Positions 40,107 to 45,986 of a stretch of 64,000 bases of DNA are shown here, piece by piece. The stretch covers positions 1 to 64,000 of IMG/VR virus record IMGVR_UViG_3300029448_000001, one strand, 5' to 3'. Source of the stretch: a virus. Under the pieces are notes generated by a model. It made no database searches and was not told the DNA's origin. It was given only the letters and a program-made list of their open reading frames with translations. Position numbers and translations under genes: made by a program. Each line of letters starts with the position of its first letter. Positions within the stretch are counted from its first letter, which is position 1.

Positions 40107-40919
40107 TTAACTAATATTTTTGTTGCTTTTTAACAACGTAGTGGCTTTTTCTTTTATAGATTCATCTTTAAAACTTGACTGCGTAAAAACTTCATAAATT
40201 TTTTCTATCTTTTCTTTGTCTTCTGCATGTTCGATATACGCTAATCCTGTTTCTATAAAGTTTTTTGTATCTCTTTCTTTGTAGTAATGATTTACTAAAA
40301 ACCAAAGTGTCCAACAATTTGTAGGATTTTCTTCAAACTCTTCCCTTAACATTTTTACATAAAGTTCAGGTCTTTCTTTCTTCTTAAAATCTTGGTCGTG
40401 AATTAAATATATTAAATCATTATAAACTTCATTTTCAAGTTTAGGGTCATGCTTGTACGACCAGAACAAATGTTCATAGATAGGTTGTACCCAATGATAA
40501 TATTTTTTTCTATGAATTTTATTAGTTCCTAAACATTTAGGAGGACCTACACGAACTTCTTTTGTGTATATGTCTAATCTATCACATGCAATATTTGTTA
40601 CTGATGGAGTTTCTTTCATTGTTTTTTCCATCTCATCTAATACGTTGATAGAAAAGTATTCGTCTAAATCAGGAGAAAGACACCATTCAACATCTTTAGG
40701 TATCATGTTCAAATTGTAGTTTCTAGCTACGTTGAATTTCCATGGCGTAAAAGTTTTTTGTTCGACAATTATATTATCAGCTTTTTTAAATTCTTCATAT
40801 GTTCCATCTGTAGAACCTGTATCTAATATGACTCTGTAATCAAAATCTTTTGTATAGTAAAGCCACTTTTCAACATACTTTATTTCATTTTTACATATTG
40901 TATATGCGGCAGTTTTCAT
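40107..40919 (-). CDS. Glycosyltransferase family 2-like (GT-A)
   Basis: YTICKNE, ILDTGSTDGT, FNVARN, DLDE (DxD), IYEHL. Confidence 0.85.
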   Translation of the reverse strand: MKTAAYTICKNEIKYVEKWLYYTKDFDYRVILDTGSTDGTYEEFKKADNIIVEQKTFTPWKFNVARNYNLNMIPKDVEWCLSPDLDEYFSINVLDEMEKTMKETPSVTNIACDRLDIYTKEVRVGPPKCLGTNKIHRKKYYHWVQPIYEHLFWSYKHDPKLENEVYNDLIYLIHDQDFKKKERPELYVKMLREEFEENPTNCWTLWFLVNHYYKERDTKNFIETGLAYIEHAEDKEKIEKIYEVFTQSSFKDESIKEKATTLLKSNKNIS

Positions 40920-41626
40920 ACTTCAAGATTATCATTTCTTATTGTAGACCTTCCCTCTAAAGGTCTAGCTTTAATAGTAGTATCATTTGTTTTGTCATAA
41001 TTTTTATCGTATGCAATCAATCCTTGATGAGTGATATGAAATATATCTGTTCTTATCATAATATCTAAAGGAGCAACTATTCCATATTTTAATACATGAG
41101 CAAGTAAATTTTTTGCAACTTGAGGGTCAATACCATAAGCATGGGCTCTACAAATAAAATGATAGTTAGGACCTTCTGATGCATGTGGTGGAACTGACAT
41201 GACAGGCCAGTTTCTCTCAGCCCATTCTATTCCACCAAGATAAACAATTGAATTATAACTTTCGTGCATTTCAATATTCTTAATCACAATTGCATCATGC
41301 TCTAATATAATAATTGGCTTATCTAAATTTACACAATGAATCCATAAACTAATATGACTTAATGCACAAGCAACCTCACCTCTAGTTAAATAGTGGTCGG
41401 TAATTTTTAACATTTTCATAAAGTCGCTGTTTGATGAATGTTCTGGAACTATCATTTTACTTTCTTTAGTTCCATCGTAAGCGTCCCATATTTTCCACTT
41501 CATACCAACTTTATCACAAGAATCTTGACATTCTTTGGAATGTCTTTCCGATTTCTCATGATTTTTTACTGTTATAATATATGCACTTTCATACGCTCTA
41601 GTATTCGACCAAAATGGATTTATCAT
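40916..41626 (-). CDS. Glycosyltransferase family 25-like
   Basis: WDAYDG, LTRGEVACALSHISLW, IIILEHDA, AHAYGI, PLD. Confidence 0.85.
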   Translation of the reverse strand: MINPFWSNTRAYESAYIITVKNHEKSERHSKECQDSCDKVGMKWKIWDAYDGTKESKMIVPEHSSNSDFMKMLKITDHYLTRGEVACALSHISLWIHCVNLDKPIIILEHDAIVIKNIEMHESYNSIVYLGGIEWAERNWPVMSVPPHASEGPNYHFICRAHAYGIDPQVAKNLLAHVLKYGIVAPLDIMIRTDIFHITHQGLIAYDKNYDKTNDTTIKARPLEGRSTIRNDNLEV

Positions 41627-41627
41627 T

Positions 41628-44662: not shown

Positions 44663-45932
44663 TCTTAACCTTTTCTATAATTTTAGTTGTAGAGTGCCCT
44701 TCAAGAAGAGGTATAATGACAGTCTTTTTTACAATATCATGCCCTATAACATCTTCTTTTTTGTAGTCTCCACCTTTAGTTATTATATCAGGCTTTATTT
44801 TGTTTATTAAGTCAAGAGGCGTATTTTCTTCAAAAATTATTACTTCATCTACAAAATCTAAAGCAAGTAACATTTTCTTTCTATCTTCTTGATTTACAAC
44901 AGGTCTGTCATCACCTTTTATTCTTTTAACGCTTTCATCTGAATTCAATCCTACGACTAGTTTATCGCCTAGTTTTTTAGTTTTTTTAAGATAGTCAACA
45001 TGACCACTATGAAGCAAATCAAATACTCCGTTTGTAAATACAGTTTTTATTATTCCTAAGTCTTTTTGAGAAACAGAACTTGTTCCTTTTTTAGTAACTA
45101 CTGCTGATGCACCTTGATTTGCCAATTCTACAGCATCATTTACGCTATAATTTTTATCAATTCCATAAGCAATTGATGCCGTTACAGTATCACCAGCACC
45201 AGTAACGTCAAAGACTTCTTTAGCTATAGCTTTTCTGAATTTGAATTTATCTTTAGAAATTAAAATCATACCTTTATTTCCTAATGTAACTAATAAATAT
45301 TCAGCATTTACAGACTCTAAGACTGCTCTACCTTTTTCAATAATATCTAAATTATTATTACATTTTCCTACAGTTTGTTCAAACTCTTTTAAATTGGGTT
45401 TTAATAACCAACAATCTGAGTATTTTGATAAGTTGTTTTTAGGGTCAACTATAATTTTATTATTTGTCTTCTTTATATGATAAATAATATGATTCAATTT
45501 ATTACCTAGTGTTCCTTTTGCATAATCGCTAATTATTACGCAAGAGTATTTACTAAAATCTGTTTTGAGTATTAGATTAAACAACTGTTGGTTGTCATAT
45601 TTCAAATCATGGTCAATTCTAGCATAGTAATGGTTATTAGTATAAATTCTAGTTTTGTGGGATTTAAGACCATTAGAGGGTAAAACATTTTGTAGATTTA
45701 AATGAGTATTTCCTACAAGTATTTCATCTAGCCATGTTTTATCTAAAATCGCAAACAAATCAGTTTTAACTTTTAATTTTTTTAGATTTTGTGCTACGTT
45801 GCCTGCTCCTCCGGACAAAAACTTCTTGTGTGTGTATTCAATTACTGGAACAGGGGCTTCAGGACTTAATCTGCTACTCTCACCGTACAAATATTCATCA
45901 ATAATTAAATCGCCTATTACTGCTACACTCAT
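44652..45932 (-). CDS. hldE: Bifunctional heptose-7-phosphate kinase / heptose-1-phosphate adenylyltransferase
   Basis: PfkB domain (RLSPEAPVPV, GGAGNVA, ISDYAKG, DVTGAGDTV) plus nucleotidyltransferase domain (TNGVFDLLHSGH, GLNSDESV, KGGDY, LLEGHSTT). Confidence 0.93.
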   Translation of the reverse strand: MSVAVIGDLIIDEYLYGESSRLSPEAPVPVIEYTHKKFLSGGAGNVAQNLKKLKVKTDLFAILDKTWLDEILVGNTHLNLQNVLPSNGLKSHKTRIYTNNHYYARIDHDLKYDNQQLFNLILKTDFSKYSCVIISDYAKGTLGNKLNHIIYHIKKTNNKIIVDPKNNLSKYSDCWLLKPNLKEFEQTVGKCNNNLDIIEKGRAVLESVNAEYLLVTLGNKGMILISKDKFKFRKAIAKEVFDVTGAGDTVTASIAYGIDKNYSVNDAVELANQGASAVVTKKGTSSVSQKDLGIIKTVFTNGVFDLLHSGHVDYLKKTKKLGDKLVVGLNSDESVKRIKGDDRPVVNQEDRKKMLLALDFVDEVIIFEENTPLDLINKIKPDIITKGGDYKKEDVIGHDIVKKTVIIPLLEGHSTTKIIEKVKNAA

Positions 45933-45974
45933 ATTGCATTCTCCATTATCATAAATAGTCTAAAATGTCGTGTT

Positions 45975-45986
45975 TATTTATAAATA
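45975..45986. promoter_or_regulatory. Palindromic bidirectional late promoter TATTTATAAATA
   Basis: TATAAATA on + (45979-45986, toward gp13) and on - (45975-45982, toward hldE); an extra CATAAATA on + at 45950-45957. Confidence 0.75.

Follow-up and report, generated by a model that had tools for sequence, protein, structure and literature searches.

In the TibC/TibA and AAH/AIDA-I systems of Escherichia coli, the heptosyltransferase gene lies beside that of its repetitive protein substrate, as cited in PMC7591256 (its reference 52), and in FlmG, the flagellin O-glycosyltransferase of Caulobacter crescentus, a TPR domain binds the substrate and a GT-B domain glycosylates it (PMC7591256). Here we describe a phage locus that recalls both arrangements. 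It lies in a stretch of 64,000 nucleotides (below, the window) that forms the first 64 kb of the 143,979-bp IMG/VR virus contig IMGVR_UViG_3300029448_000001; this contig is about 80% complete, and absence of a gene from it is not proof of absence from the genome. The source phage is a T4-like myovirus. The element under study is a minus-strand operon of six genes (40107-45932) encoding, from its upstream end, an HldE-like enzyme, a small cupin, HldD, a fusion of TPR-like, GT9-like and methyltransferase domains, a GT25-family glycosyltransferase and a GT2-like glycosyltransferase, and it converges on two genes for giant proteins built of RCC1 repeats. The reading that we favour, and hold with about even confidence, is that phage-encoded enzymes glycosylate the RCC1-propeller proteins of the phage's fibres late in infection, heptose probably being the first sugar to be attached in this case; by analogy, such a module would work like TibC/TibA and AAH/AIDA-I and have an architecture like that of FlmG. 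The phage heptose cassette and the host recognition cluster are already known, a role for them in fibre glycosylation is not in the literature, and the literature search found no paper tying RCC1, tail fibres and glycosyltransferases together in phages.

Linkage of the GT9-like gene to RCC1 genes

The fusion protein (601 residues; 41628-43433, minus strand) has more than 1,575 homologues in metagenomes, about 60% identical, and the neighbourhood of its gene was compared in 80 IMG/VR loci, 74 of them having enough upstream sequence to test. An RCC1 open reading frame (ORF) stands directly upstream and on the same strand in 71 of these 74 relatives, at a median gap of 81 nt, and after clustering at 70% identity the RCC1 neighbour is kept in 15 of the 16 testable clusters; the GT25 gene follows immediately downstream in 64 of the 80. 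Relatives of only 32-41% identity still show the pairing, as do loci with a different gene order or with different fusions. In loci L087-092, two GT9-like genes, each standing alone, are scattered among three RCC1 genes, GT25, a split hldE, the cupin and hldD, the same gene set being found in the marine virus AG-345-E08; in S-SRM01 (RCC1 proteins gp335, gp337 and gp344, TPR-GT9 protein gp338) the order is fibre, RCC1, RCC1, TPR-GT9, 2-oxoglutarate (2OG) oxygenase, further genes, RCC1, sulfotransferase, GT2 and epimerase; and in five contigs of metagenome-assembled genomes (MAGs; L101-L105) an RCC1 gene lies upstream or downstream of a GT9-like gene. Among the 50,697 records of INPHARED, RCC1 matches were obtained in BUCT-ZZ01, AG-345-E08, S-SRM01 and C. 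difficile phages, and GT9-like matches in BUCT-ZZ01, AG-345-E08, S-SRM01 and one fragment. The protein encoded at 6131-8233 of Synechococcus phage BUCT-ZZ01 (L001; UTS52180.1), which is annotated as 'BNR repeat domain protein', shows 31-34% identity to the shorter RCC1 giant of the window (RCC1b) and proves to be RCC1-like; it carries KSSPVQIG in most blades, and its gene stands directly upstream of the homologue of the fusion gene (product UTS52179.1). A reverse search with the RCC1 C-terminus returned only 8 loci, single-sequence patterns reaching close relatives only. Co-occurrence of this glycosyltransferase family with SSPVQ-type RCC1 genes, proposed as a check in a first-pass annotation of the window, is strongly positive in IMG/VR, INPHARED and MAG contigs, across gene orders and fusions; and because the GT9-like relatives almost always adjoin RCC1 fibre genes, the phage probably sugar-coats its own fibres and not the host surface.

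The candidate acceptors in the window are RCC1a, a protein of 4224 residues (20337-33011, plus strand; PF25390, PF00415 and PF13540, all at very high scores), and RCC1b, of 2277 residues (33012-39845, plus strand; Pfam RCC1 families). The TAA of RCC1a is followed directly, in the same frame, by the ATG of RCC1b (33009-33014). Preceding them on the plus strand at 18421-20314, the genes for a tail-fibre protein (449 residues; phrog_9017, E 3.6e-17) and a tail-fibre-assembly-like protein (175 residues; phrog_4912, E 1.4e-10) define a fibre module that is syntenic with the RCC1 and GT9 genes in 26-28 relatives; the RCC1 proteins are presumably virion components. The place just behind a fibre gene is the classical one of fibre maturation factors such as T4 gp38 and Tfa, a point in favour of fibre glycosylation. 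Besides Pfam's confirmation of the RCC1 assignment, the motif counts fit the earlier description of an SSPVQ-type motif repeated dozens of times: Ser-Ser-Pro (SSP) occurs 40 times in RCC1a and 21 times in RCC1b, [RKH]SSPVQ 16 and 8 times, and N-x-S-S-P 13 and 8 times, respectively, SSP being present in 67% (RCC1a) and 62% (RCC1b) of anchored blades. As a signal, SSPVQ stands only in part, since P-V-Q-[IV] is a canonical RCC1 blade element, aligning with the same element of plant UVR8, whereas the doubled Ser is specific to GT9-linked RCC1 proteins. The pattern [RKY]SSP[VIT]Q[IV] is found in 55-100% of blades in 9 of 10 GT9-linked RCC1 sets (the RCC1 proteins of S-SRM01 have R[SNT]TP in place of SSP), and SSP in only 2 of the 48 blades of seven unlinked RCC1 proteins (that of phiCD211 and six bacterial ones). 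N-x-S/T sequons, also considered as the signal, were rejected, the conserved element being Ser-Ser-Pro.

The blades of the window's RCC1 proteins have diverged to 21% amino-acid and 38% nucleotide identity, and in spite of this the Ser pair of the motif is written with TCN codons in 117 of 122 cases, AGY making up 27% of all Ser codons in the RCC1 genes; this pattern fits motif sites that never left Ser, and the doubled Ser is under long purifying selection. A 2OG oxygenase of the prolyl 4-hydroxylase type (PF13640) had no match on the contig, which makes Ser a likelier acceptor here than hydroxyproline. A further RCC1 protein, of 1759 residues, lies in the tail-fibre module of Clostridium phage phiCD211 (L110, 5932-11211), with neither a GT9-like gene nor SSP; since this is a phage of a Gram-positive host, RCC1 propellers were seemingly recruited as fibre parts more than once.

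Architecture of the operon and its enzymes

The 601-residue protein was modelled by AlphaFold from 34 homologues (predicted local distance difference test score, pLDDT, 84.8), a second model of residues 1-365 reaching 91.4. Three parts are seen in the models, all encoded on the minus strand: a TPR-like helical region (residues 1-78; 43200-43433), which is a candidate substrate-binding module; a GT9-type GT-B domain (94-361; 42351-43154), heptosyltransferase-like by fold; and a class I S-adenosylmethionine (SAM)-dependent methyltransferase (370-560; 41754-42326). Folds were compared by Foldseek, by VIA re-alignment and by an exhaustive VIA search of 48,161 PDB representatives, all three of which rank GT9 enzymes first. 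The best VIA matches of the GT-B domain are a Veillonella GT9 enzyme (3tov; Z 19.3), WaaF (18.1), WaaC (16.8) and TibC (16.4, with a root-mean-square deviation of 3.3 over 249 residues), and the next GT-B enzyme outside GT9 scores 10.6. Just below the true GT9 enzymes, at Z 14.6-15.2, stand 9grx chain 1 and 7wff chain a, a subunit of the plant chloroplast NDH-PSI supercomplex and presumably a GT9-derived structural subunit. In the motif EGGxGDE, residues G110, G112 and D113 are invariant across the family down to 26% identity, D113 corresponding to Asp13 of WaaC by offset only (model residue 101 aligns to WaaC residue 1), and TSCTSxAH is conserved through the family over the same range. Embedding places the protein near viral clusters, some of whose members carry PF01075, and near bacterial proteins that combine TPR and GT9. 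The methyltransferase domain matches many SAM methyltransferases (VIA Z 11-13), PF08241 (E 0.0027) and phrog_6636 (E 1e-8), its LNLGCG motif I and acidic D392 being invariant in the family. The TPR-like part consists of four helices in both models, with best VIA matches to APC7 (Z 8.8) and to APC and Ski3 chains (8.5-8.7), which is weak for helical repeats. The whole enzyme has no membrane segment.

Compared with TibC and AAH (PDB 4rap, 4rb4), the phage enzyme shares a soluble cytoplasmic GT9-type GT-B fold, with sequence similarity that is undetectable. The bacterial enzymes use ADP-heptose, and the phage enzyme would by analogy do the same, a donor suggested by gene context: the joining of its gene with hldE and hldD in one operon in the window, and heptose genes near the GT9 gene in 26 of 80 relatives. 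TibC and AAH adjoin a large repetitive host-attachment protein that is O-heptosylated on many Ser; the phage counterpart to this, by analogy, is the adjacency of RCC1 genes. TibC has a four-Cys iron site and forms a dodecamer. The phage GT9 domain, by contrast, is without a conserved multi-Cys cluster, a single Cys (C291) being conserved in alignments A1 and A2. Unlike TibC and AAH, the phage enzyme has an added TPR-like N-terminus and a fused methyltransferase, its presumed acceptor is a beta-propeller where theirs is a beta-helix, and it belongs to a viral system with its own donor pathway and two further glycosyltransferases. The likeness to FlmG would be one of architecture, FlmG being a modular soluble enzyme with N-terminal TPR and C-terminal GT-B parts that modifies Ser/Thr before export or assembly; the differences are that FlmG transfers pseudaminic acid onto flagellin while the best fold matches of the phage enzyme are GT9, and that the phage TPR-like part has only about 78 residues, although deeper phage relatives, some annotated or clustered as TPR proteins, carry long TPR-like extensions. 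WaaC and WaaF (PDB 2h1f, 1psw) represent the best-scoring fold class (Z 16.8-18.1) and share the presence of hldD in the same gene cluster, as in E. coli rfaD-waaF-waaC; the GD motif of the phage enzyme would fall at WaaC Asp13 by offset. They differ from the phage enzyme in that it gives no PF01075 match, and in acceptor and context: theirs is Kdo2-lipid A at the membrane, and the phage enzyme is fused to TPR and methyltransferase parts, its gene being linked with RCC1 and not with core genes of lipopolysaccharide (LPS). Among viruses, mycobacteriophage virions are reportedly glycosylated (Freeman et al. 2023, as cited in PMC12619734). In that case, and in giant viruses with their glycosylated capsids and fibrils, structural proteins of the virus are modified by glycosyltransferases that it encodes itself, as proposed here, with other enzyme families, acceptors (capsid, tail-tube C-termini) and hosts and with no heptose pathway.

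The two partner glycosyltransferases complete the downstream half of the operon. The GT25 enzyme (236 residues; 40916-41626, minus strand) matches PF01755 over residues 16-128 with E 1.1e-18 and 68.3 bits against a cut-off of 24. It also matches the N-terminal part of phrog_61 (689 positions, 2OG-Fe(II) oxygenase) with E 1e-11, which suggests from sequence that phages have fusions of GT25 with an oxygenase, recalling the hydroxylase/glycosyltransferase pairs of collagen. The last gene encodes a GT2-like (GT-A) enzyme of 270 residues (40107-40919, minus strand), which matches phrog_13126, a beta-1,4-glycosyltransferase, with E 1e-34 and falls below the Pfam thresholds (PF13704, 24.4 bits against 27.5; PF00535, 16.3 against 23.3). 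This enzyme is 35% identical to the N-terminal half of single ORFs that fuse GT2-like with TPR/GT9-like domains (L107, 8969-11086; L108, 5141-7537), and these fusions link the GT2 and GT9 enzymes functionally.

The upstream half comprises the heptose genes. The HldE-like protein (44652-45932, minus strand), 36% identical to Salmonella RfaE, joins a PfkB-type heptose-7-phosphate kinase (residues 2-292) to a heptose-1-phosphate adenylyltransferase (296-423); PF00294 (2-287) and PF01467 (299-392) are fused at full length, an arrangement as in bacteria, the two activities being split in cyanophages. Its scores lie below the NCBIfam equivalog cut-offs (NF008454, E 1e-114 and 383.7 bits against 521; TIGR02198, 261.4 against 345; TIGR02199, 175.4 against 181.5), for which reason we call it HldE-like and treat its substrate specificity as presumptive. 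HldD, the ADP-glyceromanno-heptose 6-epimerase (43443-44306, minus strand; listed ORF 43443-44414), scores 271.5 bits with TIGR02197, just under the cut-off of 274.6, and is 43% identical to E. coli HldD in BLASTP over residues 37-319, nearly the full length (E 2e-67). Between them lies the cupin (119 residues; 44303-44662, minus strand; PF07883, E 2.6e-8; phrog_7851, E 1.7e-36), with a weak match to PF01050, the C-terminal domain of mannose-6-phosphate isomerase (E 3.3e-5). It corresponds to T4-GC 307, which co-occurs with kinase, nucleotidyltransferase and epimerase in cyanophages (PMC3037559), and it accompanies the phage heptose cassette wherever this occurs. It may act in phosphosugar isomerisation or in sugar tailoring, and it might even carry out the analogous isomerisation of sedoheptulose 7-phosphate as a non-homologous replacement of GmhA; marine cyanophages retain both the cupin and a small 'phosphoheptose isomerase'. 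Comparison of the cupin, GT25 and GT2 proteins with PDB sequences was uninformative. Taken with the other enzymes, the operon probably makes activated heptose (ADP-heptose). Of the enzyme identities given in the first-pass annotation, those of hldE, cupin, hldD and GT25 are borne out, with the reservations on the HldE-like and HldD scores given above; the GT9-like/methyltransferase fusion is right by fold, without a PF01075 match; and 'GT2' is softened to GT2-like.

The six ORFs occupy 40107-45932 as had been described, and their coupling is tight: hldE and the cupin gene overlap by 11 nt; the true start of hldD is Met37 of the listed ORF (44306), in an ATGA overlap with the cupin stop; 9 nt separate the hldD stop from the start of the fusion gene and 1 nt its stop from the GT25 start; and the GT25 and GT2 genes overlap by 4 nt. 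Most relatives have the fusion gene and GT25 downstream of RCC1 and in its orientation, and hldE-cupin-hldD, where present, forms a separate unit diverging from gp13. In the window both halves are united in one minus-strand operon behind a shared late box, so that heptose synthesis is physically tied to the transferases. The late promoter that had been postulated ahead of the operon has its counterpart in a perfect 12-nt palindrome TATTTATAAATA (45975-45986), located between hldE (minus) and gp13 (plus), which holds the T4-type late box TATAAATA on both strands: on the minus strand at 45975-45982, 43 nt ahead of the hldE ATG, and on the plus strand 27 nt ahead of the ATG of the divergent gp13. 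The window contains TATAAATA at 1002, 2195, 10711, 45975, 45979, 50342, 53496, 60669, 61846 and 62903, without over-representation (10 observed against 9.9 expected), and each of the sites checked against the ORF list falls 27-72 nt ahead of a same-strand gene start. Late promoters appear to be marked by placement of TATAAATA and not by its number, as expected for the T4 type. L049 and L050 have a comparable divergent stretch, 57 nt long, that carries near-boxes. The window shows no enrichment of sigma-70-like promoters (32 against 36.6 expected).

Proposed fibre glycosylation and competing roles

For fibre glycosylation by this operon we infer an acceptor, a donor, an order of steps and a timing as follows. 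Late in infection the HldE-like enzyme and HldD, perhaps together with the cupin, would raise the ADP-heptose pool of the infected cell, the GmhA and GmhB steps coming from the cupin or the host. In the cytoplasm, the TPR-like N-terminus of the soluble 601-residue enzyme would bind RCC1 proteins during or after their folding, and the GT9-type domain, with Asp113 as base, would move the sugar onto a hydroxyl of the Ser-Ser-Pro loop in most blades. A methyl group would be placed on the sugar, or on a group next to it, by the fused SAM methyltransferase. Extension of the glycan would fall to GT25 and the GT2-like enzyme, and the decorated propellers would then enter the fibre apparatus. The division of labour into a primer, extenders and a methyl cap, and a purpose such as shielding or mimicry, may be supposed along the same lines. 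With distinctly less confidence we put forward a wider proposal, namely a widespread, unrecognised protein O-glycosylation in aquatic T4-like phages, in which a TPR/GT9-type enzyme would heptosylate the SSP loop of essentially every RCC1 blade, the heptose being in this phage phage-made, methylated and extended by GT25/GT2.

Several results weigh against fibre glycosylation. PF01075 gave no match to the 601-residue protein (E <= 0.01) or to the whole contig (E <= 1), the NCBIfam models left its GT9 domain undetected, hhalign of family alignment A1 against E. coli WaaC returned 2% probability with the C-terminal HLxAA motif aligned, and the A1 profile gave only weak methyltransferase matches among PDB sequences; because of the missing PF01075 match and the insignificant hhalign result, the protein is filed as GT9-like by fold and not as a sequence-defined GT9 member. 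The fold Z-scores do not separate LPS-type (WaaC, WaaF) from protein-type (TibC) enzymes. In the L045/L046 and L070 lineages the GT9-methyltransferase gene follows large non-RCC1 proteins without SSP, and the relatives share descent, part of their synteny being inherited. No more than the 26 of 80 relatives mentioned above have the heptose cassette at a distance of up to 10 kb from the GT9 gene; the complete BUCT-ZZ01 genome has the GT9 enzyme without hldE or the cassette, and the cassette is not found on three long, incomplete contigs. Conversely, S-SSM7 and P-TIM68 have the cassette without GT9 or RCC1 genes. On the contig neither GmhA (SIS, PF13580) nor GmhB (TIGR01656) had a match, so that these steps would have to come from the host, the cupin or the missing 20% of the genome. 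Only 9 of 51 distinct relatives have an exact TATAAATA in the 150 nt that precede the GT9 gene, and a dedicated late box is therefore not a family feature.

A first alternative is remodelling of the host envelope, by which ADP-heptose and the transferases would alter host LPS, lipooligosaccharide (LOS) or another surface glycan and so block superinfection or keep progeny off debris; we judge it rather unlikely. It is the standard literature reading of the 'LPS genes' of cyanomyophages and pelagimyophages (PMC1079782, PMC3037559, PMC7029224): the cyanomyophage heptose cassette is known as T4-GCs 304, 305, 307 and 308 (PMC3037559; also in PMC7378029), the LPS genes of P-SSM2 are read as surface conversion (PMC1079782), and the glycosyltransferases of the host recognition cluster, with rfaE, as modifiers of the host O-chain (PMC7029224). 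That cassette (P-SSM2, S-SM2, S-SSM7; also P-TIM68, S-CAM1/3, S-T4) has kinase, nucleotidyltransferase, cupin and epimerase in common with the window and in S-SSM7 sits at the same place, between tail fibres and gp13, with no GT9 or RCC1 genes nearby. In the window it differs by the fusion of kinase and nucleotidyltransferase, by having no SIS-type isomerase and by its union with the GT9-methyltransferase, GT25 and GT2 genes in one operon; the literature gives the cyanomyophage genes either a role in host LPS or no role, and does not assign them to fibre glycosylation. LPS/LOS core synthesis is the classical task of GT9 and GT25 enzymes, WaaF and WaaC score as well as TibC, the cassette occurs in phages without RCC1 or GT9 genes, and the host of this phage, which has no psbA on the contig, may be a proteobacterial methylotroph with heptose-containing LPS. 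Host remodelling nevertheless leaves unexplained both the coupling of GT9 and RCC1 across deep divergence, gene orders and fusions and the selected Ser-Ser motif of the linked RCC1 proteins. A 601-residue enzyme with a TPR-like, protein-binding N-terminus and without a membrane segment also speaks against it, and a late promoter in a lytic phage would be poor timing for exclusion. Cyanobacterial LPS is usually without heptose, and on that ground BUCT-ZZ01 and S-SRM01, which infect Synechococcus, argue against it as well. The first-pass preference for virion glycosylation over host LPS conversion is accordingly kept in part: the GT9-like fold, the late box, the RCC1 co-occurrence and the selected Ser-Ser speak for it, and against it stand a fold that cannot tell LPS-type from protein-type enzymes and the reading of the cassette as LPS genes.

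Two other roles were considered. The GT9-methyltransferase could be tied to RCC1 fibres otherwise than as their glycosyltransferase, that is, as a chaperone or adaptor, or as the modifier of another virion or host protein whose product the RCC1 propellers bind; this seems improbable to us. A slot directly after the fibre gene is typical of chaperones, the TPR-like domain suggests protein binding, the protein upstream is not RCC1 in L046 and L070, and propellers are common glycan binders. Yet the family shows little or no variation in the GD motif, in the GT-B core motifs or in those for SAM binding, which argues from sequence for active enzymes, and the co-travelling GT25, GT2 and heptose genes together with the GT2-GT9 fusions point to glycan synthesis. 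Still more remote, and in our estimate very improbable, is an operon unrelated to fibres, serving sugar modification of phage DNA or a soluble heptose metabolite, or being functionless 'stuffer' DNA left by transfer. Phage glycosyltransferases do often modify DNA (reviewed in PMC7029224 and PMC12619734), and the stuffer idea was raised in PMC3037559. Against such roles stand the more than 1,575 intact homologues with many invariant residues, and selection for a function is suggested by the close coupling of the operon genes, by the late box and by the linkage to RCC1. To our knowledge, GT9 and GT25 folds are not among the known types of DNA glycosyltransferase.

Should the wider proposal made above hold, the fibres would be densely coated with glycan, and many 'LPS genes' of cyanophages and pelagiphages would be genes of fibre maturation and not of host conversion. 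Those of marine cyanophages have been without a demonstrated function since 2005, and the GT9-RCC1 link offers a concrete alternative, testable in the cultured isolates BUCT-ZZ01 and S-SRM01. Fibre glycosylation, if confirmed, would add protein heptosylation to viruses, would extend virion glycosylation beyond the mycobacteriophage case to phages of Gram-negative or cyanobacterial hosts, and has a bearing on how abundant aquatic phages adsorb, which hosts they reach and how stable they are. Annotation is corrected too, for enzymes now labelled 'hypothetical', 'TPR protein' or 'methyltransferase' and for the RCC1 protein of BUCT-ZZ01, labelled 'BNR repeat'.

Genomic setting and traces of expression

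To the right of the operon lie gp13, gp14, gp15 and TerL (PHROG matches) and to its left the baseplate wedge proteins, a VrlC-like protein of 2051 residues and the tail-fibre and tail-fibre-assembly-like genes. The earlier placement inside a morphogenesis region is overstated: fibre genes lie on one side of the locus and gp13-gp15/TerL on the other, but what separates VrlC from the neck genes in pelagimyophages and cyanomyophages is a hypervariable host recognition cluster, already described, in which accessory genes are usual (PMC7029224). A cyanobacterial host is not taken for granted: psbA (PF00124) had no match on the contig, and TerL shares only about 49% identity with its cyanomyophage counterparts. 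INPHARED gave no megablast match to the operon.

Between the operon and the RCC1 genes lies a gap of 261 nt (39846-40106), which carries a plus-strand terminator-like hairpin at 39878-39893; the scan found no minus-strand terminator after the GT2 gene. Contigs at least 99% identical to the phage are present in a marine metatranscriptome library and in other runs, and their occurrence in that library marks the phage as marine. With 39800-46300 as the segment searched, the library yielded 11 contigs of at least 99% identity over five of the six genes, their RNA origin, timing and strand being uncertain. Two of them span gene junctions (43249-43598 and 44216-44465), and the contigs give a weak hint of expression and co-transcription of the operon.

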